A stretch of 64,000 bases of DNA. It comes from an uncultured Alphaproteobacteria bacterium. GTDB lineage: Bacteria > Pseudomonadota > Alphaproteobacteria > Rhizobiales > Hyphomicrobiaceae. The stretch is taken from the NCBI GenBank assembly GCA_963825625.1, contig CAWGUF010000019.1, forward strand, positions 135,534 through 199,533. The letters run 5' to 3'. Shown here piece by piece: positions 2,672 to 60,427 of this stretch. The stretch's first letter is position 1, and the number at the start of each line of letters is the position of its first letter. A program made the position numbers and the translations under genes. The notes below the pieces were generated by a model. The model saw only the letters and a list, made by a program, of their open reading frames with translations. It was not told the origin of the DNA and did not search any database.

Positions 2672-3238
2672 TCAGGCGCCCTCGGCCAGCACCTTCCTCA
2701 GTGCCGCCCGCCGCTCGGGCCGGTACATCTCGTCGTAGGAGCGCGGGCCCAGCGGACCCTGCTCGATCTGCAGCGTTACGAACGCGGGACCGTCGCTCTG
2801 CAGCAGCCGCGGCAGCTTCTGCTCGAACTCCACGAGGTCGGCGATGACGTCGACTTTGTCGATGCCGGCGGCGCGCGCCATGCCGGCGAAATCGACGTTG
2901 TCGCGGTTGACGATCGGGTGGCCGCCATTGGCCTCGTAGGACCCGTTCTGCAATACGAAGTGCAGGAAGTTTTCGGTGCGGCTTGCCGCCAGCGTGACCA
3001 GTGTGCCCAGGTTCATCAGCAGGCTGCCGTCACCATCGAGCACAACCACCTTGCGCTCCGGCCGTGCCAACGCCAGTCCAAGCCCGTGACTGGAGCACAA
3101 GCCCATTGCCCCATGACTGAAATAATTGAGCGGGCGGTCATTGACCCGTATCCAGTCGCTGGCTGTGGAATAGGACGAGACCACGATCTCGTTGGTGATA
3201 TGGCGCTTGAGGATCTCGAGCAGGGCGACGCGGTTCAT
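2672..3238 (-). CDS. TPP-dependent decarboxylase, beta (C-terminal TPP-binding) subunit; sulfopyruvate/phosphonopyruvate decarboxylase ComE-like
   Basis: ORF 2672..3601 is trimmed to Met122 (MNRVALLEILKRH...). It carries the VVLDGDGSLLMNLG TPP-binding motif. A GAGGGAG RBS lies 8 nt upstream of ATG 3238. Confidence 0.75.
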   Translation of the reverse strand: MNRVALLEILKRHITNEIVVSSYSTASDWIRVNDRPLNYFSHGAMGLCSSHGLGLALARPERKVVVLDGDGSLLMNLGTLVTLAASRTENFLHFVLQNGSYEANGGHPIVNRDNVDFAGMARAAGIDKVDVIADLVEFEQKLPRLLQSDGPAFVTLQIEQGPLGPRSYDEMYRPERRAALRKVLAEGA

Positions 3239-3255
3239 TATGATAGCTCCCTCGT

Positions 3256-3789
3256 TCAGACTGGCCGGCGGCCGATGGTCAATGCCACCGGACGCGAGGT
3301 CGCATAGGCCTGCTCGATGGCCGGTGCGATCTTGGGGATGTCTGCATCGGTATCGATGTAATGATGGGGAATGCCCAGCACGTCCAGCATGGGCTCGGTG
3401 ATTCGTACTCCGAACCTGTTGGATTGCGTCGGTGCCACATCGGGCTCTTTCGACAAGAGGCCGATCATCATCACCATCGGCATCTCGTGCTCGCACGCCA
3501 CCGCCCGGATCGCGTTCATGGCGTAGAGAAAACCGGTGTATTGAATGAGGATCAGGGCGCGCTTGTTGCCATAGGTGAGGCCCGCCGCAATGCCCAGGCA
3601 CTCGTCCTCCTTGCAGACGCGGACGAGCTTGAGGTCCGTGTCCTCTGCCACACGCTTGAGCACACCCTGGCTGGTATGCAGGTCCGGCACTGACAGCACG
3701 TATTCCACGCCGGCCGCCTTCACCGCCTTTATGATCTCCTCGCCACTGAGCGTTCGGGCGTCGGACGCCGGCCTGGTTGCCGCTTTCAT
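3256..3789 (-). CDS. TPP-dependent decarboxylase, alpha (N-terminal pyrimidine-binding) subunit; ComD-like
   Basis: 177-aa ORF with the TPP-enzyme N-terminal domain pattern (GVEYVLSVPDLHTSQGV...GLLS). Its stop is 17 nt upstream of the beta-subunit start, which suggests a two-gene operon. Confidence 0.75.
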   Translation of the reverse strand: MKAATRPASDARTLSGEEIIKAVKAAGVEYVLSVPDLHTSQGVLKRVAEDTDLKLVRVCKEDECLGIAAGLTYGNKRALILIQYTGFLYAMNAIRAVACEHEMPMVMMIGLLSKEPDVAPTQSNRFGVRITEPMLDVLGIPHHYIDTDADIPKIAPAIEQAYATSRPVALTIGRRPV

Positions 3790-3852
3790 TTCGCTTCCTC
3801 GCCTGATAGCGCTTTGGTATGCGTTGTTTGCTACTGTTTTTCCGGCCGGTTC

Positions 3853-4472: not shown

Positions 4473-5183
4473 ATGGCACGTGATTTCGAGGATCATTGCT
4501 GGAAGGACGTGATTCCGCAGCAGATGCTGGACATTTACCAGCATTACGCCCGCGAGACATACGTCGGCGATGCGCCGGCGCTGCTCGCCATCGACCTTTA
4601 TGAACTCGTGTATCAGGGCGGCGCCAGGCCAGTACAGGAGGTGACGAAGGAGTTTCCGTCCGCTTGCGGCGAATACGCCTACAACGCCATCCCGCCGACG
4701 AAACAGGTGTTCGCCGCCGCCCGCGCTGCCGGCTTGCCGGTCATCTATACAACTTCAGACGCCCGGCCAGACAGCCGCCCGCGCCGCGTATCGGCCACCA
4801 ACCGCAAGGGTGTGCCGCTCGACCCGTCGGCCTATGAGATCCGCGCCGACTTCAAGCCGGAGCCCGGCGACACCGTCATCACCAAGCAGCGCGCAAGTGC
4901 CTTCTTCGGCACACCGCTGGTCGCCCACTTGAACATGCTGGGGGTGCGCTCGCTGATCATCGTCGGCGACAGCACGTCGGGCTGCGTGCGCGCCAGCGCT
5001 GTCGATGCCTACAGCCACGGCTACCACGTCACGCTGGTGGAGGAATGCTGCTTCGACCGTTGCGAGCTGTCGCACAAGGTCAACCTGTTCGACATGCATC
5101 ACAAGTACTGCGATGTCATGCACGTCGACGAGGTTCTGGCGGCGCTGACAAAAATGAAGCCCGCGCGCGCAGCGGCGGAGTGA
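4473..5183 (+). CDS. isochorismatase-family cysteine hydrolase
   Basis: IIVGDSTSGCVRASAVDAYSHGY is typical of the isochorismatase/CSHase fold. ORF 4398..5183 is trimmed to Met26. Confidence 0.8.
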   Translation: MARDFEDHCWKDVIPQQMLDIYQHYARETYVGDAPALLAIDLYELVYQGGARPVQEVTKEFPSACGEYAYNAIPPTKQVFAAARAAGLPVIYTTSDARPDSRPRRVSATNRKGVPLDPSAYEIRADFKPEPGDTVITKQRASAFFGTPLVAHLNMLGVRSLIIVGDSTSGCVRASAVDAYSHGYHVTLVEECCFDRCELSHKVNLFDMHHKYCDVMHVDEVLAALTKMKPARAAAE

Positions 5184-5209
5184 GCCGATCAGCTGCGCGC
5201 CTTCAGTTT

Positions 5210-5274
5210 GTCGCTGGCGACTCCCCTTCGGGGAGCCGGCCGCCAGCGACGTGCGATACGCGCCGTTATTTTTG
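5210..5274 (+). terminator. probable intrinsic terminator after the isochorismatase gene
   Basis: Inverted repeat GTCGCTGGCG-ACTCCCC-TTCG-GGGAG-CCGGC-CGCCAGCGAC at 5210-5250, then a T-run TTATTTTT at ~5267-5274. Confidence 0.4.
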
Positions 5275-5547
5275 CGCTGCGACTGCGGCGCTTACGCAAT
5301 GCCTCGGATCGGCCATGACGGTCGATCGGGCATCGAGCAGGCGTCAAGCTGGCCGTCATGGCCGCGCCGGACAGAGGCGCAGCCGAAGTCCGGGACCAGG
5401 CGGCCATCCATGGCGGCGATCGGCATGCGTTGCGGTCGATCCACTTTGAGGCGCTTTCATGCCCCTGACGGCGAATCAATCTGTACAGCTCTTGACGATC
5501 AGCGCATAGTTAACACGCGGTGGAGTACATGCGCGGAGGGCGGCGTG

Positions 5548-6837
5548 ATGGAATGCGGCTCGGGTGAGTGGGCTTGTGTGGTTCTAAGCTTACTAGAAAA
5601 GCATGGGGTGGAGGCATCTCACGCGCTTGGTTGGCTGCCTAGCGTGGAGCTTCACGTTAGAGAAAACATACAGGCATTGATTGGCCTGCTTGGTCTATCA
5701 TTTGGTATCTATAAATGGTGGTATTTTCGTGATCGCGCCCTTCATCAGCGGCTTAAGGCCTATCTCAGCGAGCAGGATGCGCGCCTGAAAGAGGCGAGGT
5801 CGTATACGCTTGAGGCGATTAACCGGCCAGGAGCGAAGCGTCGGTTTGCCGAACCGCTTTTCGCCGTGGAGCCATTGCGCAAAGTGCTTCATAAGAAGGG
5901 TTGGAATTCCATTTTGAGCGCGAATACGCTTGAAACAGGTGCCGAACGCCTGATTGAGCAGGCTCTGCAAGGTGTCGAGGACCGGCTTGCAACGTCTCAG
6001 AACCAACTTGCGAGTTTTCGAGTGCAGCAAGCGAGTGCGCATTTACTCAAGGGCGCGATTGCGGCCGCGCGAGCTTCAAACATGCGAGATAGCGCACAAG
6101 CGTTCGCGTTGGATGATCGGGCCTTGAATGCATTTCGGACAGTGCAACTTGTTCCGGGATATGAACGTGATGTCGATGCGAAAGAGTTCGAGGCTCACCA
6201 GTTGCGAAAGCTGGGGCATCTTGCATTGGCGAAAGCTGCTTATTTGAAAACAGAAGAGTTTGCGGGTTTTTTGACCGATCAGCGTTCACGGGACTTGACA
6301 ACTGCTCGTTGCCGGCGCTGGCGCGCTAGTATTGAGCAGCAAGAAGCTATAGAGAGGTATGCTCGAGGCCAGCAAATTGGACGTGGGAGTCATAGAGCTC
6401 AGCAGTTGCTTAGAGGCGACGAAGCTGGTCAGGTTTTAGGTGCACTAATGTTGCGCAAACCGTATGAGCCGTTTGGCGGTTGGGATGCAATCGACCAAGG
6501 AGACTACCACTATTTTGCAGCGTTTGTGAGCGATAATTTGGGCTTTAATCTCCAAAGAGACGGAAGTCTCAATGACGCCGTTACTGAATACAAGCGAGTA
6601 TTGGAGAATACGCCGAGAAAATTATTCGGGTCCGAAACCAACAGGCGTCTGCGGGCTGCAGCTCATGCAGGTCTGGATCGCGCGCGAGCGGCTCAGAATA
6701 AAAGGCAGTTTGACGCCGCTTGGCTTCTGGCGCCATCACAGCCAGCGCAGGCCCATGCCCACGACGTAGGCCAGTCCAGCGGCGAGCAGGCCATTGACGA
6801 AGCTGCGGAGCAGGATGGCGTTGACGGCGCCCGATAG
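5548..6837 (+). CDS. hypothetical membrane-anchored alpha-helical protein encoded on a low-GC insertion; C-terminal end uncertain
   Basis: ATG 5548 sits 7 nt after a GGAGGG RBS. The product has one predicted TM helix (IQALIGLLGLSFGIYKWWYF) followed by ~370 aa of helical, Ala/Arg/Gln/Glu-rich sequence with no motif I recognise. The DNA at 5470-6725 is visibly AT-richer than its flanks. The frame has no stop until 6837, where it runs antisense through the neighbouring gene. Confidence 0.5.
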   Translation: MECGSGEWACVVLSLLEKHGVEASHALGWLPSVELHVRENIQALIGLLGLSFGIYKWWYFRDRALHQRLKAYLSEQDARLKEARSYTLEAINRPGAKRRFAEPLFAVEPLRKVLHKKGWNSILSANTLETGAERLIEQALQGVEDRLATSQNQLASFRVQQASAHLLKGAIAAARASNMRDSAQAFALDDRALNAFRTVQLVPGYERDVDAKEFEAHQLRKLGHLALAKAAYLKTEEFAGFLTDQRSRDLTTARCRRWRASIEQQEAIERYARGQQIGRGSHRAQQLLRGDEAGQVLGALMLRKPYEPFGGWDAIDQGDYHYFAAFVSDNLGFNLQRDGSLNDAVTEYKRVLENTPRKLFGSETNRRLRAAAHAGLDRARAAQNKRQFDAAWLLAPSQPAQAHAHDVGQSSGEQAIDEAAEQDGVDGAR

Positions 6838-7243: not shown

Positions 7244-7310
7244 TTGGTGGGCATGATTGCTGCAGCGGGGGGTGAGAGAAACCCAGGCTCCTCCAGTTGA
7301 CGTGGCAACA

Positions 7311-8456
7311 ATGTTCAGAATCGGACCATTCCGCAGCTCAAATGCCCCGGCGCAGCGTCGAGATGTTTCAATTCGCGACACCGATACCGGGCGGCGCAGG
7401 CGTGAAGGCCGGCTCGACTGGTTCGATTATGCCAAGGGTATCTGCATCATCCTGGTGGTGATGCTGCACTCCACGATCGGCACCGGCGAGGCCTACCGGG
7501 ACTGGGGGCTGGCGCCGCAGGGCTTCATGCATACGGTGGTGGCCTATGCCAAGCCGTTCCGCATGCCGGATTTCTTCATGCTGTCTGGTCTGTTTCTGTC
7601 CTATGCGATCGGCCGTGGCTGGCTGCACTATCTCGACAAGAAGCTGGTGCATTTCGCCTATTTCTATCTGCTGTGGACGACGATCCAGGTGGTGGTGAGA
7701 ACCGGCGCGACGAGCGGGCTGGAACCTGCCGGACTGTCGGCGCAACTGGTGGATGCGCTGGTGAACCCCTATCCGACGCTGTGGTTCATCTACGTGCTGC
7801 CGCTATTCTTCATCCTGACCAAGGCGATGCACGGCACAGTGCCGGGCTGGCTGATGCTGGCCGGCGCCGCGCTGCTGCAGATCCTGCCGGTGCATACCGG
7901 GTGGAAGGCGATCGACAGCATGGGCGCCCACTATTACGTCTACTTCCTGGCCGGCTATCTGCTCGCGCCGCGGATCTTCGCGTTGGCGCGCTGGGCGGAG
8001 GAGAACAGCGGCCGGGCTCTGGCGATGATCGCCGGCTGGGCCGTGCTGAACGGCATTCTGGTCTTCACTCCTAGCCCCATCGAGGGCTGGACGTCGGTGG
8101 CGGCGCTGCCGGTCGTTTCGCTGGCGCTGGGCGGTCTGGGTGCGGTGGCGATCATCATGATCGCCAGCGTGATGGCCAAGGCCGACGTGCTGGGCATCAT
8201 CCGATATTGCGGCAAACATTCGCTGGTACTCTACGTCTCGTTCACGATTCCGATGGCAACGACCCGGGTGCTGCTGCTGAAGACGGGTCTTGTCGCGGAT
8301 ACGGGGCTGGCTTCCGTGATCGTGTGGCTGGCGGCGCTGGCGGGGCCGCTGGTGCTGTACCTGATGGTGCGGTCGACGCCGCTGCGCTTCCTCTATGAGC
8401 GCCCGGACTGGCTGGTGCTGCCGTATCGCAGGTCGGCCACGGCGCAGGCCACCTGA
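7311..8456 (+). CDS. acyltransferase-3 family integral membrane protein (OafA/ExoZ-like)
   Basis: [20 protein letters not shown], the N-terminal motif of acyltransferase family 3, with about 10 predicted TM segments. ORF 7257..8456; start chosen at Met19. Confidence 0.8.
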
Positions 8457-8565
8457 GGACCGTCGGCAGCGCCGGGGCCCCAGCCGCAAAGACGCACCGC
8501 GGCGAAAACGTGTTGTGAACGCCGCGGGCCGCCTTGAGCGGTGCGGGTTGTCGCGCCATATTCGG

Positions 8566-11344
8566 GCCATGGCACGTGCTCCGAAATCGTCCGCCGCAGG
8601 TAAAAAGCCGCGTCCCTCGCGTGGCAAGTCCGGGAAGCCGCTGGCGCCGCCCGCGGAGACGGCCGCTGGCACGCCCGGTTTCGGCGAGGCGCCGCAGTCA
8701 TATTTTGTGCCCGGCGCCCCCCCCGCGGGCGATCCCAGCGCATCCGGCCGGCGCGCCGCAGGCGTGTCGGATGCGCCAAGCAAGACTCTCCCGGCCTTGC
8801 GCAACCAGGCGCTGACGCCGTCGTCGGATACATTCAGTGTCACGGCGGGGCTGCACGCGCTGCTCGCCCGGCCCGAGGAGCGGTCCACAGCCGCGCGCGA
8901 TCTGCTGGCGCGGCAGCCGATGATGGCCAGTCATCCGATCGTGGCCGGAACGGCGATGGAGTTCGTGCCGCACAGGCCAACCCGGCCCGAGAAATCGGAA
9001 GGCGGCATCCGGTTCGAGTTCGTCTCGGAGTTCGAGCCAAAGGGCGACCAGCCGCATGCGATCGCCGAGCTGGTGGCAGGTGTGCAGGCGCAGGAGCGGA
9101 CGCAGGTGCTGCTCGGCGTCACCGGCTCCGGCAAGACGTTCACGATGGCCAAGGTGATCGAGGCGACGCAGCGACCGGCGCTGATTCTGGCGCCGAACAA
9201 GACGCTGGCAGCGCAGCTCTACGGCGAGTTCAAGAGCTTCTTTCCGAACAATGCGGTCGAGTATTTCGTCTCCTACTACGACTACTACCAGCCCGAGGCC
9301 TACGTGCCGCGCACCGACACCTACATCGAGAAGGAATCCTCGATCAACGAGCAGATCGACCGTATGCGCCATGCCGCGACGCGTGCGCTGCTGGAGCGTG
9401 ACGACGTCATCATCGTGGCGTCGGTGTCGTGCATCTACGGTATCGGCTCGGTGGAGACCTATACGGCGATGACGTTCACGGTGCAGGTCGGCGACCAGAT
9501 ATCGCAACGTCAGCTGCTGGCCGATCTGGTGGCGCTGCACTATCGCCGCAACGACGGCAATTTCCATCGCGGCACGTTCCGCGTGCGCGGCGATACGATC
9601 GAATTGTACCCGGCCCACTTGGAGGATCGCGCCTGGCGCTTCTCGATGTTCGGGGACGAGATCGAGTCCATCACCGAATTCGATCCGCTGACGGGGCAGA
9701 AGAGCGACGAGCTGAAGCTGGTGAAGGTCTATTCCAACTCGCACTACGTGACGCCGAAGCCGACGCTGCAGCAGGCCATCCGACAGATCAAGGAAGAGCT
9801 GAAGCAGCGCCTCGACGAGCTTTACGCGAACGGCAAGCTCTTGGAGGCGCAGCGGCTGGAGCAGCGCACGATGTTCGACATGGAGATGATGGAGGCGACG
9901 GGCTCGTGCGCGGGGATCGAGAACTACTCGCGCTATCTCACCGGCCGCAAACCCGGCGAGCCGCCGCCGACGTTGTTCGAGTATCTACCCGACAACGCGA
10001 TCGTGTTCGCGGACGAAAGCCACGTCACCGTGCCGCAAATCGGCGGCATGTTCCGCGGCGACTTCCGGCGCAAGGCGACGCTGGCGGAGTACGGTTTCCG
10101 GCTACCGTCGTGCATGGACAATCGCCCGCTGCGGTTCGAGGAGTGGGATGCGATGCGGCCGCAGTCGGTTGCCGTATCGGCAACGCCGGGCGGCTGGGAG
10201 CTGGAGCAGACGGGGGGCGTGTTCGCCGAGCAGGTGATCCGGCCGACCGGGTTGATCGATCCGGAGGTGATCATCCGGCCGGCGACGAGCCAGGTCGACG
10301 ATCTGCTGGACGAGGTGCGCAAGGTTGCGAAGAAGGGCTACCGCACGCTGGTCACGACGCTGACCAAGCGCATGGCGGAAGACCTCACCGAGTACATGCA
10401 CGAGAACGGCGTACGGGTGCGCTACATGCACTCGGACGTGGAGACGCTGGAGCGGATCGAGATCATCCGCGATCTGCGACTGGGAGCATTCGATGTGCTG
10501 ATCGGGATCAATCTGCTGCGCGAGGGGCTCGACATTCCCGAGTGCGCGTCTGGTGGCTATACTCGATGCGGATAAGGAAGGTTTCCTGCGCTCGGAGACG
10601 TCGCTGGTGCAGACCATCGGGCGGGCGGCGCGCAATGTCGACGGTCGCGTCATTCTTTATGCTGACGGCATGACCGGGTCGATGGAGCGGGCGATAGCCG
10701 AGACCGACCGGCGGCGCGAAAAGCAGGTGGCCTGGAACGAGGCGAACGGTATCACCCCACAGAGCGTGCGCCGTTCGATCGGCGACATCATGGATTCGAT
10801 GTACGAGCGCGACCATGTGATCGTTGATGCCGGTGTCGCGGCCGAGGCCGGTACGGCGCTGGTCGGCCACAACCTGGGGGCGGTGATCGAGGATCTCGAG
10901 AAGAAGATGCGCGAGGCTGCGGCCGATCTGGAGTTCGAGACCGCCGCCCGGTTGCGCGACGAGGTCAAGCGCTTGCGCGAGACCGAGCTGGCGGTTGCCG
11001 ACGATCCGCTGGCGCGGGAGCTTGCCGTCGCCCCGCCGCGCGCTGCGACCTCCCGGCCTCCGAGCCGGGATCATGCGGGCGCGCGCAGCGCGCCGGTCAG
11101 GACTGCGGCAGGCTCAGGGATGGGCTCTGGGAAGGGCGCGCGCGAGGCGCAAGCAAAGAGGCCGCACAAACCGGGGCTCGATGAGATGACGGTCGGGCGG
11201 ACGGAGGTGCCGGCAGGCCGCGAACTGTCGACGCGGCCGCTGCCCAAACCGACGAAGACGGTCGATGTCGAGGACGGCATGGCGACCGTGCAGAAGGGCC
11301 CCCGTCGCGGCCGGGCAAAGAAGACGGGGCGGCCGGGGGCGTAA
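8566..11344 (+). pseudogene. uvrB: excinuclease ABC subunit B, with the reading frame interrupted once (apparent +1 insertion near 10541-10552)
   Basis: ORF 8395..10575 carries the N-terminal Ala/Pro/Lys-rich extension and UvrB helicase motifs ([24 protein letters not shown]) up to [15 protein letters not shown] 10553..11344 continues exactly with the canonical [16 protein letters not shown]...TIGRAARN and the UVR domain ([17 protein letters not shown]). The two pieces are in different frames. Confidence 0.85.
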
Positions 11345-20137: not shown

Positions 20138-21009
20138 ATGACACTCGAACATTGCGAGAAATATACGGACACAGCGCTGCGCGTCGGCGATGCCGATCCT
20201 TATCCGCAGCGAACCGCCGGTGAATTCATCGGCACCGTCGTGTCCAACGACTGGGTGAACAAGGAATACAAGCACCTGATTCTGAAAGTGCACGAGCGGG
20301 CGCTGGAGGCCTATGCCGGGCAGTTCTTCCACCTGCTTTGTCCGACGCCGGATGGGGCCGAGGTGTGGATGCGGCGGCCGATGAGCATCTACCGCATCGA
20401 CAAGGCCAATGGGCACCTGGAATTCCTCTACAAGTGCGAGGGACGCGGGACGCGTGGCATGGCGATGATGGGGGCCGGCGACGAGTTCAACATGGCCGGT
20501 CCTCTCGGCAAGGGCTTCGGGCTCAAGGATGGCTGGAAGAACATCGTGGTGCTCGGTCGCGGCGTGGGGCTGGCGACGCTGGCGCCGCTGTCGCAGCTGG
20601 CGAAGGACGCTGGCGTGGGCGTGACGGCCATTCTGTCCGCGCGCAATCCAGACGTGGTGATGTCGCGAGGAGCTGTTCGAGGGTCTCGGTGCCAAGACGA
20701 TCACAGTGGTCGACAGCGACGCCTCCAGCGATGTCGCGAACGTCGAGAAGATCATCGAGGAGCTGATTGCTCAGGGCAAGGCCGACGCGTTCTTCACGTG
20801 CGGCTCCAGCCGGCTGCTCAAGCTGATGCAACAGCTCGGCAAGAAGCACGGTGTGCCCGGGCAGGTCGCCATGGAGCAGATCATGGTGTGCGGCTTCGGC
20901 GCCTGCTACGTCTGCATGCGGACGTTCGAGATCGACGGCGTCAAGACGCTTGAAGCGGGTGTGCCGCGACGGGCCGGTGTTCAATATGCAGGAGGCGGTG
21001 GGATGGTAG
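20138..21009 (+). pseudogene. PyrK-like FAD/NAD(P)-binding, [2Fe-2S] electron-transfer subunit, with two frame interruptions (near 20666 and near 20951)
   Basis: Frame 2 gives the N-terminal domain with RPMSIY ... ILSARNPDVVMS. Frame 0 continues EELFEGLGAKTITVVDSDASS ... MVCGFGACYVCMRTFEIDGVKT. Frame 1 ends KRVCRDGPVFNMQEAVGW*, the canonical PyrK C-terminus. Each junction is explained by one extra base. Confidence 0.7.
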
Positions 21010-21958
21010 ATCTGTCGGTCAAGATCGGCGACATCACGCTGCAGAATCCGGTCACGCCCGCATCGGGCGCGTTCTCGTGGGAATACAACGACGTCATCGA
21101 CTTGAACCGGCTCGGCGGCCTCGTCGCCAAGACGATCTGCCGCGAGCCGCGATTCGGCAACCCGACGCCGCGCATGGCGGAGACGGAAGCGGGCATCATC
21201 CAGTCGATCGGACTGCCCGGCAAGGGCATCGAGTACTTCATCGATCACATCGTGCCGGAGTACGCGCGGTTCAAACCGCCGCTGATCGTGTCGTGCTCGT
21301 CCGACAATATCGAGGAGTTCGCTCTGCTTGACGGAAGAGCTTGGCGCGTGTGCCCGACGTCGATGTGATCGAGGCCAACATCTCCTGCCCGACGCGCAAC
21401 CTGACGGGCCAGAACTTCGCGATGCACGAGGACTACACGCGCGATAGCGTGAGGGCGATCAAGGAGAAGTGCGCGGGCAAGCCGCTGTGGGTGAAGCTGT
21501 CGCCCAACGCCGGCGACATCGTCTCGATCGCGCTGGCGGCGGAAGAGGCGGGCGCGGATTGTCTCGTCATCGCCAACACCTTCCTTTCGCTCAAGATCCG
21601 CACCGACAACTTCCGTCCGGCGCTCGGCAACAAGTTCGGCGGGCTCGTTTCGCCGGCGCTGAAGCCGATCGTGCTGCGCATGGTCTATCAGGTCGCCAAG
21701 CAGGTGAAGATCCCGATCATCGGCATCGGCGGCGTGACCAAGGCGGAGGATGTCGTCGAGTACATGCTGGCGGGCGCCAGCGCGGTCGGCATCGGCTATG
21801 CGGGGTTCCGCAACCCGACCGCGCTGGTGCAGATCATCGATGACCTCGAGCGGTGGTGCGACGAGCGCGGCATCAAGACGGTCACCGAGCTGATCGGCGC
21901 GGTGAAGGACGACGACATGGAGATGGACCCGCTGGTTGCCGCCTCGCACGGGGTGTAG
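21003..21958 (+). pseudogene. class-1B dihydroorotate-dehydrogenase-like catalytic subunit (PyrD-like), with the frame interrupted near 21330-21345
   Basis: ATG 21003 overlaps the PyrK-like stop. The first piece is MVDLSVKIGDITLQNPVTPASGAFSWEY...IVSCSSDNIEEFALL. After a frame change it continues RVPDVDVIEANISCPT...IIGIGGVTKAEDVVEYMLAGASAVGIGYA. Confidence 0.7.
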
Positions 21959-22076
21959 TCGAAGGCCCAGCGACTACGCCGTTTCGCGGCGGATTGCTGC
22001 TGGGAGGTGCGTGGCCGCAATGGCAAACTGAGCGGTTGCATGCGAACCAGAACCGGAACACTGGCGCGAGCGAGCC

Positions 22077-23069
22077 ATGAAAGCCGTCGTCGTCGATACG
22101 TTGGGCCGGATAGAGAACGGCACGGTCGCGGAAATCGAAGCGCCGCGGCCTAGCGTTGGCCAGCTGCTGGTCGAGGTGCATGCCGTTCCCGTGAACTACG
22201 TCGACATCGTCACCATCACGGGCAAATACCAATTCAAGCCGGATCTGCCCTATACGCCAGGCAAGGGGCCCGCGGGGATCGTCACAGCGGTCGGCGCCGG
22301 TGTGGCGCGATTTGCGGTGGGCGATCGCGTGCTGGGCATGGCCGAATATGGCGGCTATGCCGAGCAGGCCGTGGTCGACGAGGACCAAGCCTACAAACTG
22401 CCGGACAGATTGTCGTTCGTCGACGCGGCGGCGATGTCGCTGGCCTACGATACGGCGTGGATGGCGCTCAGGGACAGAGCGCGCGTGGCGCCGGGCGATC
22501 ATGTGCTGGTGCTGGGCGCCAGCGGGGCGGTCGGCCGCGCCGCCATTCAGCTGGCAAACGCCATGGGGGCCGAGGTGGTGATGGCGGCGGTCTCATCGCC
22601 GGACAAGCGGGCCGCAGCGCTCGAGGCGGGCGCGGATGCGGTGATCGATCTGTCGCTTGGTGATATGCGTGAGAGCCTCAGGGCGCAGGTGTTCGAGGCG
22701 ACGAACGGACATGGCGCCGATGTGATTGTCGATCCCCTCGGCAGCCCGGTTTTCGAGGCGGCGATCCGGGCCGTTGCTTGGCGCGGGCGGGTCGTCGTGC
22801 TGGGCTTTGCGGCCGGCGGCATTCCTAGCCTGAAGCTCAATTACCTGATGCTGAAGAATGCGGAGGTTTCGGGACTGCAGATTTCCGACTACCGCAAGCG
22901 TATGCCGGAGCTCGTTCGCCAGGCGTGGGAGGAGGTCTTTGCTTTCAATGCGATGGGCAAGGTGACGCCGCCGAAATCGCAGACCTATCCACTCGATGAA
23001 TTCGCCGCCGCGATGCACGCGGTGGGACAGCGCAGCGCCGAGGGCCGCGTCGTTCTCGCACGGGGCTGA
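22077..23069 (+). CDS. MDR-superfamily NAD(P)H:quinone oxidoreductase / Zn-independent alcohol-dehydrogenase-like
   Basis: 330-aa ORF with the GASGAVGRAAIQLA Rossmann motif. Intact. Confidence 0.85.
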   Translation: MKAVVVDTLGRIENGTVAEIEAPRPSVGQLLVEVHAVPVNYVDIVTITGKYQFKPDLPYTPGKGPAGIVTAVGAGVARFAVGDRVLGMAEYGGYAEQAVVDEDQAYKLPDRLSFVDAAAMSLAYDTAWMALRDRARVAPGDHVLVLGASGAVGRAAIQLANAMGAEVVMAAVSSPDKRAAALEAGADAVIDLSLGDMRESLRAQVFEATNGHGADVIVDPLGSPVFEAAIRAVAWRGRVVVLGFAAGGIPSLKLNYLMLKNAEVSGLQISDYRKRMPELVRQAWEEVFAFNAMGKVTPPKSQTYPLDEFAAAMHAVGQRSAEGRVVLARG

Positions 23070-23177
23070 GCCTCACTCTGGACAAATGGCTTCCGGGCAG
23101 CTTTGCTGGGCCTTCAACGCGGCATCCGACAAGCTGCGGGGAGGATCACGTCTGCAACGAGGCGGAGAGGGCTCAAG

Positions 23178-25315
23178 ATGGCTGGGAAAAGCGGAGCAGG
23201 CAGCGGCGGCGCAACGGGCGGCGCGAAACAAGCGGCAACCGCCGATGGCTTGAAATCACCAAAATCGGTCCTCGCTGCGCAGTCGATTGCCATTGTCGGC
23301 GCCTCGGAGAAGGGGCGCTGGCCGACGCAGATTTTCAACAATCTCAAGAAGCTCGGCTACAAAGGGCAAGTCTACCTCATCAATCCGCGACAGACCGAGA
23401 TCTATGGCGAGCGCTGCTATCCCTCGCTCAAGGATTTGCCGGCGCCTGCCGAGCACGCCGCAGTGCTGGTTCCGACGCCAGCGGTGCAATCGGTGCTGGA
23501 AGATGCGGCGGCCAGCGGCGTCAGGTCGGCCACGATCTACGCAGCGGGATTCGGTGAGGGCTCCGATCCGGACTCGGCTGAGCGGGGCGAATGGCTCAGG
23601 AATTTCATCGCGCGCTCGCAGGTGCGGATTTCTGGGCCCAACTGCATGGGCTCGTTCAGTTATCGTGAGCGGCTGTTTGCGTATCCGCATGCCGCTTTGT
23701 GCGAGTTGGAGCCGGGGCCGGTCGGTCTGGTCTTCCAATCGGGCGGCAACCTGCAGTTCTATATGCAGTCGGGTGGCGACAGGGGCTTGCGTTATTCCTA
23801 CGCGGTCTCGACAGGAAACGAGCCCGATCTGAACCTGGCCGACTATGTCAACTTTCTGGTCGACGATCCCAATACCTCGACGATCGTCTTGTTCATCGAG
23901 GGTATTCGCAAGCCGGGTCCGTTCATGGTGGCGGCGGGCCGCGCGCTGGCAGCGGGCAAGCCGATCATCTGCATCAAGACCGGCCGCAGCCAGGCATCAC
24001 GCGAGGCGGCGATGTCGCATACCGGGGCAATCGCGGGAGATTTCGAATCGTTCCTCGCCATGTGCGATCGCTTCGGCATCGTGTGCTGCCGGTCGATGGA
24101 CGATCTGGTCGAGACTGCACTGGCTTTCCAATGCGGTCGCCGGCCAAAGGGTCCGAAGATCGGTTTCGTGACGACTTCGGGGGGAACGGTCGATCTTCTC
24201 TATGATTATTGCGAGGCGGAGGGCGCTGCCCTGGCCACTTTCTCCGAAGCGACCAAGGCGGCGTTGCTGCCGACGATGCAGGAAGGAATCGCGCCGAAGA
24301 ATCCGCTGGACGTCGGCATTCCCTCGACCTCAGAGGCGGCGGCTGGCTGGTGCCGGACTGTGCACAACGATGCGGATGTCGACATGGTCGGGTTTGCCAC
24401 CAATGTGCCGAAGAAAGGCGAAGGCTATGGCGATCTGGGGCCGTTCGCCAAGCTGACACAGGAGACAAGCAAGCCGCTGCTCGGCTTCGCGCGCGTTATA
24501 CATCAGTCGCCGATCGACATCGGGCAGGCGCAACGCGATTTCGGCTTCCCTCTCCTGCAGGGGCTGGAGCCGACGGTGCGGGCGATGAACGCGTTGTGGT
24601 TCCATGCCCAGCGGCAAGGCAAGGCGCCAGTGCTGCCGCCGCCGGCGCAAGCCAGCACGCTGACGGCTGAGACACTGGAGGCGACGCTTGCCACGTATGG
24701 CATCGTGCTGCCGAAGAGCACGCTGGCCACGAAGTCCGGGCGATGCGGTCAAGGCAGCCGAGGCCATGGGCTTTCCTGTCGTGCTCAAGATTCAATCCGC
24801 CGACATTCTGCACAAGACGGAGGCGGGCGGGGTGCTTGTCGACCTCGAGATCGCCGGAAGCGGTGGCGGAAGGGGCGCGCCAGCTCGAAGCGTCCGCGCG
24901 CAAGGCATTTCCCAAGGCCCGCATCGATGGTTTTCTCGTCCAGGAGATGGTGTCGGGTATCGAGGCGATCGTAGGGGCGCGTACGGATGAGCTTTACGGT
25001 CCGATGCTGCTGGTCGGTGCGGGCGGCATTCTGGTGGAATTGGCGAAGGATGCGCGGCTGGCGATGCTTCCGGTCGGCAATGACGAGATCAGCTCGATGA
25101 TCGACGGACTGAAACTCAACCGCCTGCTGGCGGGCTACCGCGGGCGGCCGCCGGCAGACCGTGCCGCGCTGGAGCAAACGGTTGCCGGGCTGGCACAATT
25201 CTTTCTCGATCATCGCGCGGCGATCCGGGATATCGAGATCAATCCGCTGATGATCCGGGCAGACGGTAAGGGTGCAATCGCCGTTGATGTTCGTGCGATC
25301 TGGCACGACCGCTGA
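23178..25315 (+). pseudogene. NDP-forming acyl-CoA synthetase (CoA-binding, succinyl-CoA-synthetase-like flavodoxin and ATP-grasp domains), with two frame interruptions (~24733 and ~24850)
   Basis: Frame 0 has the CoA-binding region SIAIVGASEKGRW. Frame 1 has PGDAVKAAEAMGFPVVLKIQSADILHKTEAGGVLVDLE. Frame 2 has SPEAVAEGARQLEASARKAFPKARIDGFLVQEM... to 25315. Both junctions are consistent with a single inserted base. Confidence 0.7.
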
Positions 25316-25372
25316 GCTCTGGGCCGTGCAGGCAATCCGTTTTCAGGCAATCCGTTTGGGGAGCATATCGTC

Positions 25373-26359
25373 ATGATTCAGGTGCGTCGGCTCGGCCATG
25401 CCACATTCACGACATCGGACATCGAGCGGGAGGTCGACTACTGGACCAACATCATGGGGCTCGCGGTGATCGACCGTACGCCAGACCGGGTCTTCCTTGG
25501 CACGCAGTACGGACATGAAGCGATCGCGCTGGTTGCGGAAGGCGATCCGGCGTGTCGACGCGATTGTCGTTTCAGGTGGCACCGGACAGCGATCTCGGCG
25601 AGCTGGCGGCCAAGGTGCTCGTCGAAGCACGGCGTGAAGTGCGAGCGCTCGAAAGGCATCTCGCCCGGCGTCGAGGATGCGATCACGTTCACGACCCGAA
25701 GGGCACGCTGACCGAGGTTTACGCCGATTACGCTTGGCAGATGCCGACGATCGCGATCCGGTCATCTCACCGCTGAAGTTCGGCCATATCGCCTACCGGG
25801 TCAATGACGCGCAGAAGGTTACGGCTTCTACACCGACGTGCTCGGCTTTCGGTGTCTCGGACTGGATCGGCGACCACTTCTCGTTCCTGCGCTGCGGGCC
25901 GGACCATCATACTGTCAACTTCGCGCGTTACGCGGAAGAGAAGCTGCATCACATCGCGTTCGAGGTGAAGGACGTGGCGACGCTGCACCGCGCTTGCGAC
26001 TTCCTCGGCCCAGGAACAAGATACAGCTGGTGTGGGGACCGATCAGGCACGTCGTCGGGCACAACATCGCTGCCTATCATCGCAATGCGGACGATATCCG
26101 CGTCGAGCTGTTCTGCGAGCTCGACATGATGCTCGACGAGACGCTGGGATACTTCGAGCCGCGGCCCTGGCACGAGGATCGGCCGCAGTGCCCCAAAGGT
26201 ATGGCCGGCGGATACCTGGCGGGCGCAATGGGGGTTCGGCTCATTCGGACAGTTTCCGGGCTATCCCTGAGGTCTCGACGCATTCTGAGCGTGGTTTTGC
26301 CGCAATATTCCGGAAAATACGTCGTGAAGATCATATCCGTGTGCGATAATACCGTTTGA
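25373..26359 (+). pseudogene. two-domain VOC-family extradiol ring-cleavage dioxygenase (catechol-2,3-dioxygenase-like), broken into at least 7 frame segments
   Basis: A GGGGAG RBS precedes ATG 25373. Recognisable pieces in alternating frames: MIQVRRLGHATFTTSDIEREVDYW...; RLSFQVAPDSDLGELAAKVL; SKHGVKCERSKGISPGVEDAITFT; DPKGTLTEVYADYAW; DRDPVISPLKFGHIAYRVNDAQK; YGFYTDVLGFR; VSDWIGDHFSFLRCGPDHHTVNFARYAEEKLHHIAFEV...; KIQLVWGPIRHVVGHNIAAYHRNADDIRVELFCELDMMLDE. Confidence 0.7.
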
Positions 26360-35641: not shown

Positions 35642-36968
35642 TTATTCGGCAGCTTCGGTCCGGCCACCGTTTGCGGCCTGCTGCTGTTTTGTGACGGCCA
35701 ACTCCTCATCCGTGCAGCCCAACGTGCGGAAGTCGTAGCCCTTGGGCGTGATGCCCTCGAACGATTGCAGCGCGGCGAGCGGAATGCGCGGCTCAGTCGT
35801 GCCGATGGCGGGGCCACCATTCTGCATGGTGCGCGCTGCTTCCACCATCTGCTTGCGGAACTCGACGACGGCGAGGTCGGAAGCGCCCAGGCGATCCTGC
35901 GTGCGATCGACGAGCGGGCCCATCGACTCCCACATCGAGATATCCTGGTTGGTGATGCCGGGAATGCCGGTGAAGTTGCCCAGCTTCATCAGCTGCCGGT
36001 CCTGCTTGTAGTTGTTGGCGCGGTTGCGCGTATTGCGATAGGTCTCGTCGAGGTCGATGCCCACACGGTTGGCGTGCAGCTTGCGCCAGTCCTCCTGCGA
36101 TGGCACCGTCTCGCCGCCGAACGCCACGAAATAGAACGTCGTGGAATAGTCGTCGCGCGGGACATGCACGGTACAGCTGCGGTGCAGGTTGTTGGGCGGG
36201 ATGTGCACCAGGTAGGGCGCCACGAACAGGGTCGTGCGGACGTAGTCGTGGGTCTGAGCGTCCTTGATGGGACGGCGGATGGCCGAATAGCGAAAGCCGA
36301 AGGAGGTGCGCTGCACCACCATTCGCGGCGCCTTGTCGGTCGAGGGGCGCTGCCATTGCGTCACGGTCGACTGTGCTCCCGGTACGCGCGCAGGCACCAT
36401 GTCGGAGGAGTGCAGCGTGGACGAGTGGGCGCTGTCGATGGAGCCTTCCAGCATCTGCACCCAATTGGCATCCACGATCACCTTCGTGCTCACCACGTGC
36501 GTGTCGGGGGTGGGTAGGAACACCGGCGGCTCGAATTCCGGCATCGTCTCCGGCGGACCCATGTAGGTCCAAACGAAGCCGGCGCACTCGCGAACCGGAT
36601 AGGATTTGATTTTGACCTTGTCGCAGAAACTAGACTTCGGCAGGCTCGGAGGCCATCTCCACGCAGTTGCCATCGACGTCGAATTTCCAGCCGTGGTAGA
36701 GGCAACGCAGGCCGCATTCCTCGTTGCGGCCGTAGAACAGCGAGGCGCGGCGATGCGGGCATGCCTCGTCTATCAGTCCGAGCCGGCCATCGGTGTCGCG
36801 GAACAGCACGAGATCTTCGCCCAGCAGGCGGACACGAACGGGGTCACCATCAGGCTCGGCGACCTCTTCGCTCAGTGCGGCGGGCAGCCAATGGCGGCGA
36901 TAGATCTGTCCCATCGGTGCATTGCCTTCGACGCGGCAAAGCAGATCGTTTTCCTCGGGTGTCAGCAT
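35642..36968 (-). pseudogene. second, tandem paralog of the Rieske oxygenase alpha subunit, with the frame interrupted between the Rieske and catalytic domains (~36633-36640)
   Basis: ORF 36630..37019 (true start ATG 36968, MLTPEENDLLC) ends ...NCVEMASEPAEV*. ORF 35642..36673 continues ...SSFCDKVKIKSYPVRECAGFVW... in another frame. Both pieces are ~85% identical at protein level to the intact copy; one extra G explains the junction. Confidence 0.75.
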
Positions 36969-37176: not shown

Positions 37177-37214
37177 CCGTCTACAGGACCGGCAGACCGG
37201 AGATTGCCGGCCAG

Positions 37215-38186
37215 ATGACAGCCGACGATATGCCGCCGATGATGCTATTGTCCGTGACGCGTGCCGAGCGGGCGGCCGAGGACATCCAACTGTTCGAGCT
37301 CCGTCGCCCGGATGGTGGGGAGCTGCCTGAGTTCACGCCTGGCGCTCACATAGACGTGGAGCTGCCCGGCGGCTACCGGCCGCAAGTACTCGCTGGCAAA
37401 TGATCCGGCCGATCGCGAGGTCTACCAGATCGCGGTCAAGCGCGAGGCCGAGGGGCGCGGTGGATCAGTGTCAATGGTCGACGGGATCAAGGCCGGTGAC
37501 ACGATCTCCGTGTCGCTGCCAAAAAACGAATTCGAGCTGAAGCCATCGCCGGCCGGCTATACGCTGATTGCCGGCGGGATCGGGATAACGCCGATATTGT
37601 CAATGGCGCGGCACCTCAAGTCGACAGGCGCGGGCAAGTTTCGCCTGTACTATCTGACGCGATCGAAGGCGGCGACGGCATTTCTGGAAGAGTTGTCCGG
37701 GCCGGAGTTTCGCGGGGCAACGTCAAGATCCACCACGACGGCGGCGATCCGGACAAGGCTCTCGATCTGTGGCCGGTGCTGGAGCAGCCCAAAGGCCATG
37801 TCTACTGCTGCGGTCCGCGCGGGCTGATGCAGGTGGTGCGCGATATGACCGGGCACTGGTCGAGCGCGGCGGTGCATTTCGAGGCGTTTACGGAGGGAGC
37901 GACAACCAAGCCCGACGACAAGCCGTTCAAGGTGACGGTGCGGCCAGGCGGTCAGGTCGTCGATGTTGCTGTCGGCACCTCGATCCTGGAGGCGTTGCGT
38001 GCGGGCGGCTTCAAGGTGCCTTCATCGTGCGAAAGTGGTACGTGCGGCTCGTGCAAGTCGAAGCTGGTGAGCGGTGTTGTCGATCATCGCGACTTCGTTC
38101 TGACCGATGAGGAGAAGGCGCGCCACATCATGGTGTGCGTCTCGCGGGCTTCGTCCGGCGACCTCGAGATCGAGATCGAGGGGTGA
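37215..38186 (+). pseudogene. phthalate-dioxygenase-reductase-type (FMN/NAD-binding plus plant-type [2Fe-2S]) oxygenase reductase, with two frame interruptions (~37380 and ~37724)
   Basis: Piece 1 ...HIDVELPGGYR. Piece 2 KYSLANDPADREVYQIAVKREAEGRGGSVSMVDGIKAGDTISVS...LYYLTRSKAATAFLEELSGPEFRG. Piece 3 NVKIHHDGGDPDKALDLWPVLEQPKGHVYCCGPRGLMQVV...CESGTCGSCKSKLVSG. Junctions look like an extra C in CGGCCGC and one G lost in a G-run. Confidence 0.75.
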
Positions 38187-40101: not shown

Positions 40102-41608
40102 ATGCACGATCTCGATTTCGATCACGATCACCTGACCGACGACGACAAGGCCGAGATCGCCCGTTTCATCTGGGCGCAGGAGACCGTCGAGCTCAACACC
40201 GTCGGAATCGATATCGGTTCGTCGACCTCCCATCTGCTGTTCGCCAAGGTCGACGCTGCAACGGCGGTCACAGGGGTTGTCGTCGCGCTTTGCCGTAATC
40301 GACCGCGAGGTGGTCTGGCGCTCGCCGATCATGCTGACGCCGTTCCTGGCTGACGGCACGATCGATGCGCAGGCTCTGGGGCGGTTCATAAGCGGTGCCT
40401 ATCAACAAGCGGGGTTGCAGCGGAGCGACATTGATTCGGGCGCGGTCATTCTCACCGGCGAGGCGATCAAGCGAAAGAATGCGCGGGCCATCGACGAGCT
40501 GTTCGCGGAAGAGGCGGGAAAGTTCGTATGCGCTACCGCTGGCCATAAGCTCGAATGCATTCTCGCCGCGCACGGCTCGGGTGCGGTGCAGCTTTCCAAA
40601 GACCGCGACTGTCCGGTTCTTCATGTCGATATCGGCGGCGGAACCACCAAGCTCGCAATCATCGACAAGGGGGTGGTGCTGGACGTCGCGGCATTCGCCG
40701 TGGGCGGCCGATGCATTGCGGCGGATGCGGACGGCCGCTATACGCGGTTCGACGATTCGGCCGTTGCCGTCGCAAATGACCTGGCGCTGGACACGTCTCC
40801 AGATGCCCTGGCGGATGCCGAACTGCGCAGAAGATATGCCGAGCGATTGGCAAAGGTCGCGGCGGACTATGTGCTGGATCATCCGCGCGATGCACTGGGC
40901 AAGAGCTTCCTGCTGACGGAGGAGCTGGCGCGCAATGTCGCCCCGCAATTGATCACGTTCTCAGGTGGCGTATCGGAATACCTGTTCGGTGCGGAGGCGG
41001 AGGACTACGGCGACATCGCCAGGCCACTTGCGCAGGCGCTGCTGCGCGAGCTGGGAGAGCGCGAGGCCCCGAGGATGGTGGATCCGGGGCAACGAATTCG
41101 GGCCACCGTCATCGGCGCCTCGCAGTTCACCGTGCAGGTCAGCGGCAAGACGATCTTCCTGCCCGAGGACCAAAGCGCGCTGCCCGTCCACAACGTACCG
41201 GTCGTGCAGGCGGGCCTCGATCTCAGTGCTGATAAAATCGATGTGGCCGCGACCGCGGCAGCCATCCGCTCAGCCATCGACAAGATGGATCTGGACCCGG
41301 CCGCACCGATGGCGATCGCGTTCACCTGGGCCGGCGATCCGGAGTTCTCGCGGCTGGAGGCGATGGGCCAGGCCATCATCGAGGCGCTGGGCGATGCGGC
41401 GCAGACAAGCGGGCTGTTGCTGTTGATGATCGACGGCGATGTCGGGAAAACGCTGGGTCGCCTCTTGCACTACGAGCTTGACCTCAAGCGAAACCTGGTT
41501 TCGATCGATGGTGTGCAGTTGAAGGAACTCGACTATGTCGATGTCGGCCAGCTTATGGAGCCGCCCGGCGTGGTTCCCGTCGTAATCAAATCGCTACTGT
41601 TCAGCTGA
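40102..41608 (+). pseudogene. EutA-like ASKHA-fold ATPase (ethanolamine ammonia-lyase reactivase family), with the frame interrupted near 40250
   Basis: Piece 1 ...VGIDIGSSTSHLLFAKV. Piece 2 STLQRRSQGLSSRFAVIDREVVWRSPIMLTPF... including the second ASKHA motif LHVDIGGGTTKLAIID. One extra G explains the junction. Confidence 0.6.
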
Positions 41609-57383: not shown

Positions 57384-57385
57384 CG

Positions 57386-59253: not shown

Positions 59254-60427
59254 ATGGAGCGATTCCCGTCTGCGGCGCACTGATCGAAGGCGCTAAAGCC
59301 CGAGCATCCCGTGTTCGGCATCCGTCCGCACGCCGCAGCGCGCGCGGCGCATTGGTTTCTGAAGAACTTCCCTGGTGAGGTGGCCTACGCCTACAAGGCG
59401 AACCACTCGGTCTTCATGATCGGGGCGCTTTATGGCGCCGGCATCACGCAGTTCGACGTCGCCTCCTTGCCGGAGCTGGAGGACGCGGCGACCATTCCCG
59501 GCGTGCAAGCTGCACTTCATGCATCCGGTGAAGTCTCGCCGGGCGATCAGGCTCGCCTACCACGAGTACGGCATTCGCTGCTTTGCTCTCGACACCGAGG
59601 ACGAGCTTGCGAAAATCCTGGAGGAGACGGGCAACGCGAAGGATCTGCAACTCTTCGTGCGTATTTCCGTCCCTGCCAAGGACAGCCGGGTGCCACTGGA
59701 GCGGAAGTTCGGGATCACGGGGCCGAAGGCTGCGAGGTTGCTCGTCAAGACCCGCCAGCACTGCGACGAGCTCGGACTGACATTCCACGTCGGCTCACAG
59801 ACGACGACGCCGGATGCCTACATCTCGGCGCTGGAGGAATGCCGTAAGCTGATCGTCAAGGCTGGCGTGGTGGTGGATGCGATCGATGTCGGCGGCGGCT
59901 TTCCATCACGCTATACCGACAGCCATCCGTCGCCTTTGTCGGCGTTCGTGGAGGCGATCGGGGCGGCGTTCGAGCGCATGCCGGTATCGCATGACTGCCG
60001 TCTGATCTGCGAGCCCGGCCGCGCGCTGGTGGCGGAGGCGGAGAGCCTGGTCGTGCGGGTCGATGCCCGGCGTGGCGACGAGTTGTTCATCAACGATGGC
60101 AGCTACGGGGCGCTGTTCGATGCCGCACACCTGAACTTCGTGTTCCCTGTGCGTCTGGTGGGGCGGGATGTGCCGGTCTCCGAGCAGATGCATCCATTCG
60201 AGTTCTGGGGGCCGACCTGCAACTCGATCGATCGCATGAAGGGACCGTTCATGCTGCCGGCATCGGTGCGTGAAGGCGACTATCTGGAGATCGGCAATGT
60301 CGGCGCCTATGGCCGCGCCATTGGTGGCCGGTTCAATGGCTATGGCCAATACCAGGAGGCGATACTGGAGGACGAGCCGATGTTCTCCATGTATGCCGGA
60401 CCCGAGGCCGCGGTGGCGAACGGGTAG
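59254..60427 (+). pseudogene. ornithine/lysine decarboxylase (alanine-racemase-fold PLP enzyme), with an in-frame TGA at codon 10 and a frame interruption near 59497
   Basis: ATG 59254 has a GGTGGAGG RBS 8 nt upstream and reads MERFPSAAH-TGA(59281-83)-SKALKPEHPVFGIRPHAAARAAHWFLKNFPGEVAYAYKAN...FDVASLPELEDAATIP, then shifts to CKLHFMHPVKSRRAIRLAYHEYGIR...GGGFP...EPGRALV... to 60427. The listed ORFs begin at GTG 59311 and at 59432. Confidence 0.7.

Follow-up and report, generated by a model that had tools for sequence, protein, structure and literature searches.

The question raised by this locus is whether the uvrB gene, found here in two overlapping open reading frames (ORFs), has been lost or split in the organism itself, or whether it is broken only in the sequence that was deposited. 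Within the window, i.e., the whole stretch of 64 kb that was analyzed, the second ORF lies in the +1 frame relative to the first, and the sequence-only reading, which had described the gene in this way, is borne out with respect to both ORFs (Table 1). ORF1 ends with an out-of-frame tail of eight residues (SGGYTRCG) followed by the TAA stop at 10573-10575. The frame of ORF2 is free of stops from 10502 on, and its GTG codon at 10553 sits 20 nt 5′ of the ORF1 stop, with an overlap of 23 nt between the two ORFs. ORF1 is identical to the database protein P0063 and ORF2 to P0121, both of which are singletons originating from one 418,126-bp NCBI/ENA contig. In regard to the start of the gene, ATG 8569 (MARAPK...) is likely to be used rather than 8395, since relatives begin there and so does P0063 (668 aa); a start at 8395 would run into the upstream acyltransferase gene (7257-8456).

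Table 1. Coordinates of the uvrB features and of the other genes with frame changes in the 64-kb window.
Feature	Position	Strand	Description
uvrB ORF1	8395..10575 (longest) or 8569..10575	+	668 aa from ATG 8569
uvrB ORF2	10553..11344	+	263 aa from GTG 10553, +1 frame relative to ORF1
Extra T	10549	+	+1 frame change; GAG TGC GCG [T] CTG GTG GCT
Repaired uvrB	8569..11344	+	924 aa with T10549 taken out
pyrK-like and pyrD-like pair	20138..21958	+	four +1 changes, ~20666, ~20949, ~21327 and ~21349
ADP-forming acyl-CoA synthetase	23178..25315	+	two +1 changes, ~24738 and ~24850
Extradiol (glyoxalase-fold) dioxygenase	25373..26188	+	~7 changes (2 x +1, 5 x -1), 25552-26012
LigXa-like Rieske oxygenase	35642..36966	-	+1 change ~36635; Rieske and catalytic domains in different frames
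FAD/NAD/2Fe-2S reductase (of Rieske oxygenase)	37197..38183	+	+1 change ~37383, -1 change ~37717
eutA-like gene	40102..41608	+	+1 change ~40252
Orn/DAP/Arg decarboxylase-family gene	59311..60427	+	+1 change ~59506

Taken over both ORFs, the encoded set of UvrB features is complete, comprising helicase motifs I, II, V and VI and the domains PF17757, PF12344 and PF02151. Motif I (GVTGSGKT, 9115-9138), motif II (DESH, 10006-10026) and motif V (10495-10542) are carried by ORF1, together with the Pfam domains ResIII/DEAD and UvrB_inter and a Helicase_C domain truncated to positions 6-84 of 110. ORF2 carries motif VI (QTIGRAARN, 10610-10636), the UvrB domain, the UVR domain (10895-10981) and the conserved C-terminal tail. 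Likewise, the NCBIfam UvrB equivalog NF003673 (653 positions) is covered over 2-513 by ORF1 and over 516-652 by ORF2. As given, uvrB thus consists of two frames and not of one polypeptide, and ORF2 alone reaches 165 bits on NF003673, which is below the cut-off. Concerning the regulatory context, the SOS box of the alphaproteobacterial type (GTTCN7GTTC) has no match across the whole 64-kb window.

One extra nucleotide had been suspected around 10541-10552, and it could be placed at T10549: when six relatives (L033, L002, L008, L001, L011 and L022) are aligned at the nucleotide level, this is the sole internal column with a gap. Independently of the alignment, a codon-usage Viterbi segmentation puts the frame switch at 10548/10549. 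The extra base is absent in all 45 relatives compared, every one of which reads TGY GCN/GGN/CGG and then CTN/TTN at this position. The T-bearing version of the site, within 10500-10600, is GCGTCTGG, and the T-less version at 10546-10552 is GCGCTGG. The sequence-only reading had located the break inside motif VI; it actually lies between motifs V and VI, two codons past the end of the former and 20 codons ahead of the latter.

Removal of this base had been expected to yield an intact UvrB of 950 aa. The protein is indeed intact once T10549 is taken out, its length being 924 aa if translation begins at ATG 8569 or 982 aa if it begins at 8395, close to the expected value. The repaired protein scores 1071.1 bits against NF003673 (cut-off 743) in a single stretch over 2-652/653, and 1004 bits against TIGR00631 over 1-658/658, and its Pfam Helicase_C match extends to 6-109/110. 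It has the N-terminal extension (8569-8955) and the C-terminal tail (~10996-11341) typical of the clade, and is collinear with P0001-P0073 from MARAPK through KTGRPGA. The intact UvrBs of Hyphomicrobiaceae/Hyphomicrobiales (P0001, P0002 and, from Hyphomicrobium sp. CS1BSMeth3, P0073) are 880-990 aa long, like the repaired protein, with which they share 83-84% identity overall and 92-94% in the core. Common to them is the order of N-terminal extension, helicase domains, UvrB_inter, UvrB and UVR, with a tail ending in ...RKTGRPGA. Unlike these relatives, the present sequence has one additional T at 10549, through which uvrB is read as two ORFs. An error in the consensus is favored because the removal of a single base restores a complete UvrB that is collinear with its relatives.

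Furthermore, no additional stops or indels were found in either half of uvrB, and neither relaxed constraint nor a second lesion, as looked for in a decaying pseudogene, was detected 3′ of the shift. Identity to the closest relatives is 92-94% 5′ of the shift and 88-91% 3′ of it, the ratio between the two parts being that seen between pairs of intact relatives, and GC3 amounts to 0.81-0.84 on both sides. A second frame problem was looked for in the linker following the UVR domain (11010-11150), where the IEDRAG...KYG motif of relatives was found in no alternative frame, and this segment was therefore treated as a divergent linker. This absence of relaxed constraint in uvrB also speaks in favor of a consensus error.

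The comparison with relatives points in the same direction. Among the 78 relatives' loci not ended by a contig edge, 77 hold the uvrB core in one frame, the single exception (L077) being a metagenome-assembled genome (MAG) with a break at another position. The database protein search gave nothing above 84% identity besides the uvrB fragment itself, and a metagenome collection scanned for the site (43-44 nt), both with the extra base and in its absence, yielded 0 hits, so that no independent copy of the species was found by the protein search or by the scan for the site. A consensus error is favored since nearly all relatives keep a single-frame core, and since the two fragments are singletons of one contig and the lesion occurs in no second assembly.

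Could the frame change be functional? Release factor 2, encoded by prfB, is synthesized by means of a +1 shift that is conserved across bacteria and takes place at CUU UGA C, preceded by a Shine-Dalgarno-like element. The uvrB locus is similar in having a +1 frame change mid-way in a housekeeping gene, and it could accordingly be read as a programmed +1 ribosomal frameshift or, alternatively, as a two-piece uvrB in which ORF2 is translated by coupling from its in-frame GTG at 10553, within the overlap with ORF1. However, the shift in uvrB is confined to one assembly, none of the 45 relatives having the extra base, and it is devoid of a prfB-type motif. When the shift site GAG TGC GCG TCT GGT was read for a slippery or stall motif, none was present, and GCG TCT GGT offers neither a slippery codon nor a stop or rare codon. 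There is no Shine-Dalgarno-like element at a suitable distance, the closest candidate, GAGGGG, being situated ~22 nt 5′ of the shift, and direct reading of the sequence ahead of GTG 10553 revealed no clear ribosome-binding site. Regarding the products, the split would separate motif V from motif VI within RecA-like domain 3, an M would replace the conserved L-V, and ORF1 would end in a junk tail. Moreover, the only truncated UvrB among the best 120 database matches is ORF1 of the present sequence. As both conservation and signals are lacking, the programmed frameshift and the split gene were rejected, and a functional shift of either kind is scarcely credible.

The uvrB break is accompanied by 18 other ±1 frame changes, located in eight further conserved genes of the 64-kb window (Table 1), which brings the total to 19 changes (13 of +1 and 6 of -1) spread over 9 conserved genes. 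Of roughly 55 genes in the window, ~9 are broken (16%, or about one in six), and within conserved genes a break occurs about once every 3-4 kb. After stitching of the frames, the Pfam matches of the eight other genes become full-length and continuous. Fragments of the pyrK/pyrD-like pair match partial profiles, and stitching gives DHO_dh 2-289/291 in one stretch and DHODB_Fe-S_bind 1-39/41. In the acyl-CoA synthetase, the ATP-grasp_5 match grows from 71-218/221 in the downstream fragment alone to 7-218/221, and from 141 to 214 bits. Two Glyoxalase stretches appear in the stitched dioxygenase, the better one covering 1-118/121, compared to 1-53/121 in its longest single ORF. The Rieske oxygenase ORF at 35645-36673 holds LigXa_C only, and its stitched N-terminus adds Rieske 1-87/88; an intact paralogue at 34251-35597 has both domains in a single frame. 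The stitched reductase matches FAD_binding_6 (3-98/99), NAD_binding_1 (1-108/109) and Fer2 (2-76/77), the EutA profile is extended from 35-474/475 as encoded to 2-474/475, and the stitched decarboxylase covers Orn_Arg_deC_N 8-247/247. As eight more conserved genes of the window are broken alike, an assembly error is favored for uvrB as well.

If all 19 breaks were real, they would indicate genome-wide pseudogenization in a mutator or a host-restricted lineage, with uvrB as one of many dead genes. The share of broken genes would suit such a scenario, and a repair-deficient mutator could in principle gather indels. Nevertheless, the stitched frames contain nothing but ±1 indels, with no nonsense codons, larger deletions or truncations, and codon bias is fully kept (GC3 about 0.8), as are the Pfam scores. 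In the 0.9-kb dioxygenase gene, seven changes fall within ~460 bases and a three-frame reading found no stop in the stitched frame, which is unlike neutral decay, and the stitched protein keeps a good score; a technical origin is favored here because decay would leave far more substitutions and stops than indels. It is also implausible that 16% of the genes, among them those of central metabolism, would be broken in a free-living bacterium of 63% GC, and the pseudogenization scenario is considered very improbable. From these patterns we infer that the frame breaks of the window would be technical and not biological.

Alternatively, T10549 alone could be a real and very recent mutation, carried by the sequenced strain or by a subpopulation that ended up in the consensus, with loss of nucleotide excision repair (NER). 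The T is present in the deposited sequence, both fragments are called as genes, the site is not a homopolymer, the uvrB break stands apart from the clusters of other breaks, and the undecayed downstream part fits a recent event as well as an artefact. A real T would mean that excision repair is absent, because ORF1 is devoid of motif VI and of the UvrC-binding UVR domain, and the cell would then be sensitive to UV and mitomycin. The uvrB deletions of the Salmonella Ames tester strains are experimentally verified loss-of-function lesions in cultured strains. A real T10549 would resemble them in the absence of excision repair and in higher UV and chemical mutability, but the present case differs in being read from an assembled sequence with pervasive frame errors around it. 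By extension, an environmental Hyphomicrobiaceae population or sub-lineage might have recently lost NER via a frameshift between motifs V and VI and could be a UV-sensitive mutator, although the chance of this appears slim. Against a real mutation stand the 18 breaks in eight neighboring conserved genes, which make the consensus unreliable at the single-base level, the intact uvrB in 77 of the 78 complete loci of relatives, and the lack of support from any independent assembly, P0063 and P0121 being singletons and the metagenome scan having given no hits. A real lesion is hence improbable. The sequence-only reading had left the choice between an NER-deficient strain and a wrong base call; given the 18 other breaks and the absence of further decay in uvrB, the wrong base call is strongly favored and NER deficiency disfavored.

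Judging from the reading frames and their relatives, the split of uvrB is thus very probably due to one base wrongly inserted into the consensus of a single error-prone public assembly, a 418-kb contig that is the sole source of the sequence, and in the living Hyphomicrobiaceae-like alphaproteobacterium uvrB is most likely intact. In such a scenario, one spurious T would have entered the assembly consensus at 10549, whereupon gene callers would have cut uvrB into the 668-aa and 263-aa products, the source plausibly being a MAG that was built from long reads or poorly polished. Gene-fragmenting indels are documented in long-read assemblies (PMC12007338; PMC9262707), which also favors this explanation; they are dealt with by Kastor (PMC12007338) and, in the case of Nanopore MAGs, taken up in PMC9262707. 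As with such errors, many genes of one assembly are affected here. The likeness extends to conserved genes being turned into adjacent overlapping ORFs, with one base added or removed restoring each protein.

Two features count against the error. The uvrB T and most other sites lie outside homopolymers, and the breaks are clustered, with the uvrB break isolated. At the 12 break sites checked (one per break, dioxygenase excluded), neither long homopolymer runs nor a shared motif was found; a GANTC/GATC methylation motif was inspected by eye at the uvrB, pyrK1 and ACS2 sites only. Sites outside homopolymers are not typical of the errors classically made by nanopore, 454 or Ion Torrent sequencing. 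In PMC9262707, indels in Nanopore MAGs are put down mainly to homopolymer regions, and the present breaks differ from those indels both in their sites and in their clustering. Regarding distribution, 13 of the 19 breaks fall in 20.6-26.0 kb and 4 in 36.6-40.3 kb, and the break nearest to that of uvrB is about 10 kb away, which indicates a local error rate near uvrB below the window average.

With an ordinary uvrB most likely intact in the cell, the biological weight of the split is small, and its value is that of a quality warning. As roughly one in six genes of the window is split by ±1 errors, calls of pseudogenes, split genes, gene loss or recoding made from this contig are unreliable until it is polished, and the same applies to other first-stage findings from the window. 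The singleton fragments P0063 and P0121 in public databases are, in turn, likely artefacts.

A pair of TPP-enzyme ORFs at 2672-3852 on the reverse strand was also considered as another frameshift and was rejected, as two complete ORFs lying side by side emerged when all three frames were read. The pair was left out of the break count because each ORF has its own start and stop, and it appears to be a natural two-subunit enzyme of the decarboxylase type.

The two overlapping ORFs of uvrB, offset by a +1 frame change, that the sequence-only reading had described are confirmed by the ORF list, the sequence, Pfam and NF003673 (the NCBIfam UvrB equivalog profile, 653 positions). The upstream ORF1 (726 aa, 8395-10575) carries ResIII/DEAD, UvrB_inter and a partial Helicase_C (6-84/110), and the downstream ORF2, listed from GTG 10553 to 11344 in a frame that is open from 10502, carries the UvrB and UVR domains. 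On NF003673 the pieces nearly abut, covering positions 2-513 and 516-652.

In regard to the site of the change, uvrB loci were taken from 80 species-representative genomes, and the codons at the junction were compared in 45 listed relatives. All 45 have GAR TGY GCN/GGN/CGG immediately before CTN/TTN GTN (Leu/Phe-Val), and the window reads GAG TGC GCG T CTG GTG. When 10479-10668 is aligned with six relatives at the nucleotide level, only one internal gap column results, at T10549, and a codon-usage Viterbi segmentation trained on the window's own long ORFs independently placed the frame switch at 10548/10549. This T is not homopolymeric, since it sits between G and C. The break had earlier been placed inside helicase motif VI, but it falls between motifs V and VI, as motif V (10495-10542) ends two codons before it and motif VI (10610-10636) starts 20 codons after it. 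A programmed +1 frameshift, or a UvrB functional in two pieces, is rejected, because the extra base occurs in none of the 45 compared relatives, GCG TCT GGT offers no slippery or stall signal, a clear ribosome-binding site ahead of GTG 10553 is absent, and RecA-like domain 3 would be cut between motifs V and VI.

Deletion of T10549 gives one ORF, whose product from ATG 8569 (924 aa) matches NF003673 in one stretch (2-652/653) with 1071 bits (cut-off 743), TIGR00631 with 1004 bits, and Pfam Helicase_C over 6-109/110. This is a uvrB of the ordinary Hyphomicrobiaceae type, and UvrBs of that family (880-990 aa, 83-84% identity) are its nearest matches in the database. With these the repaired protein is collinear from a common MAR(A/S)PK start onwards, across an N-terminal extension specific to the clade, the core, and a C-terminal tail with a conserved 18-residue motif and RRGRxRKTGRPGA. 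Because of this shared start, ATG 8569 is the likely beginning of the gene; a start at 8395 would overlap the upstream acyltransferase gene. Among the 120 best matches, the only truncated UvrB is the database entry for ORF1 itself (P0063), 100% identical to ORF1 from ATG 8569; this entry and that of ORF2 (P0121) are each a singleton, and a single 418,126-bp NCBI/ENA contig is the source of the two. The N-terminal extension of the clade (about 130 aa, window 8569-8955; proteins P0001-P0073) has the conserved motifs PRPSRGxSGKPxxPPxET, continued by ten further residues, and LPALRNQAL. The C-terminal tail, about 115 aa past the UVR domain (10996-11341), ends in the same proteins in the RRGRxRKTGRPGA sequence, which is AT-hook-like.

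Many same-strand frame switches in the window were first flagged by surveying GC3 and by the Viterbi segmentation, and the flagged genes were checked by Pfam searches, as fragments and then as frame-stitched proteins. Besides uvrB, eight conserved genes carry 18 changes of +/-1, bringing the total to 19 (13 of +1 and 6 of -1) in 9 of about 55 genes, with no stop codon in any stitched protein.

Conserved genes with +/-1 frame changes in addition to uvrB, with profile matches before and after stitching
Gene	Window position	Frame changes	Profile match, fragments to stitched
pyrK-like, pyrD-like, acyl-CoA synthetase and dioxygenase genes	20138-26188		
pyrK-like	~20666, ~20949	2	DHODB_Fe-S_bind 1-17/41 to 1-39/41
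pyrD-like	~21327, ~21349	2	DHO_dh 2-110 + 119-289 (two ORFs) to 2-289/291, one stretch
ADP-forming acyl-CoA synthetase	~24738, ~24850	2	ATP-grasp_5 71-218 to 7-218/221
Extradiol dioxygenase	25552-26012	~7	Glyoxalase 1-53 to 1-118/121
Rieske oxygenase and its reductase	35642-38183		
LigXa-like Rieske oxygenase	~36635 (minus strand)	1	Rieske and catalytic domains in different frames
FAD/NAD/2Fe-2S reductase	~37383, ~37717	+1, -1	
eutA	40102-41608	1 (~40252)	35-474 to 2-474/475
Orn/DAP decarboxylase family	59311-60427	1 (~59506)	

The paralogue adjoining the split Rieske oxygenase is intact. The adjacent ORFs at 2672-3852 (-), with TPP_enzyme_N and TPP_enzyme_C in different frames, were considered as a further frameshift and not counted, as each has its own start and stop; they represent a natural two-subunit TPP enzyme of the sulfopyruvate or phosphonopyruvate decarboxylase type.

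Of the two explanations left by the sequence-only reading, an NER-deficient strain or a wrong base call, the window-wide +/-1 breaks favour the latter, and T10549 would very probably be a consensus or assembly error, making the uvrB frameshift an artefact. Gene-fragmenting indels are documented for long-read assemblies (PMC12007338, PMC9262707). Genome-wide true pseudogenisation is rejected, since the lesions across the broken genes are +/-1 indels only, without nonsense codons, larger deletions or truncations, and the genes retain their codon bias and domain scores in full. In neutral decay, substitutions are far more numerous than indels. About seven indels in the 0.9-kb dioxygenase gene without a stop in the stitched frame would thus make such decay an unfit explanation. 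No second lesion was found in uvrB itself; its identity to the nearest relatives is 92-94% upstream of the shift and 88-91% downstream, a proportion also seen between intact relatives (e.g., 84.6% downstream vs. 91.7% upstream). Among the relatives' loci uninterrupted by a contig end, 77 of 78 have a single-frame uvrB core. The lone exception (L077, 3001-5044; CAVQHF010000004.1), from the unrelated MAG MFD05684.bin.2.182, is two-framed elsewhere in uvrB, at core residues ~217-220.

It is also conceivable, albeit quite improbable, that T10549 is real and marks a very recent uvrB null allele. In its favour, the uvrB break stands isolated; 13 of the 19 changes cluster in 20.6-26.0 kb, where the consensus may be locally poor owing to low coverage or a mixture of strains. 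Furthermore, the sites are mostly non-homopolymeric and are thus not accounted for by the classical error mode of nanopore sequencing. On the other hand, a rough Bayesian estimate with two isolated breaks outside clusters (about 2 per 55 kb) would give a 2.8-kb gene a chance of about 10% of carrying such an error, while true frameshifts of uvrB are expected to be much less frequent than this in free-living alphaproteobacteria, which favours consensus error. No second assembly of the species was found in the searched collections.

The single-base accuracy of the contig is poor, and pseudogene or recoding calls from it are therefore untrustworthy without read-level checks, a quality warning that is the practical upshot of this analysis.

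Long stretches without codon-usage coding signal lie at 5179-6738, spanned by a 528-aa ORF (5251-6837) with no Pfam match, and at 49141-50342, where a 689-aa DUF4384 ORF (49908-51977) has its 5' part. An aromatic or O-demethylase-like catabolic cluster at 34248-42784 comprises two LigXa-like Rieske oxygenases, a reductase, a GFO/IDH/MocA oxidoreductase, a MarR regulator, an EutA-like protein and a cupin. Further downstream are a kynurenine-pathway pair, tryptophan 2,3-dioxygenase and kynureninase (56550-58591), and the only tRNA or Rfam match of the window, tRNA-Val (CAC) at 63139-63213 (+).
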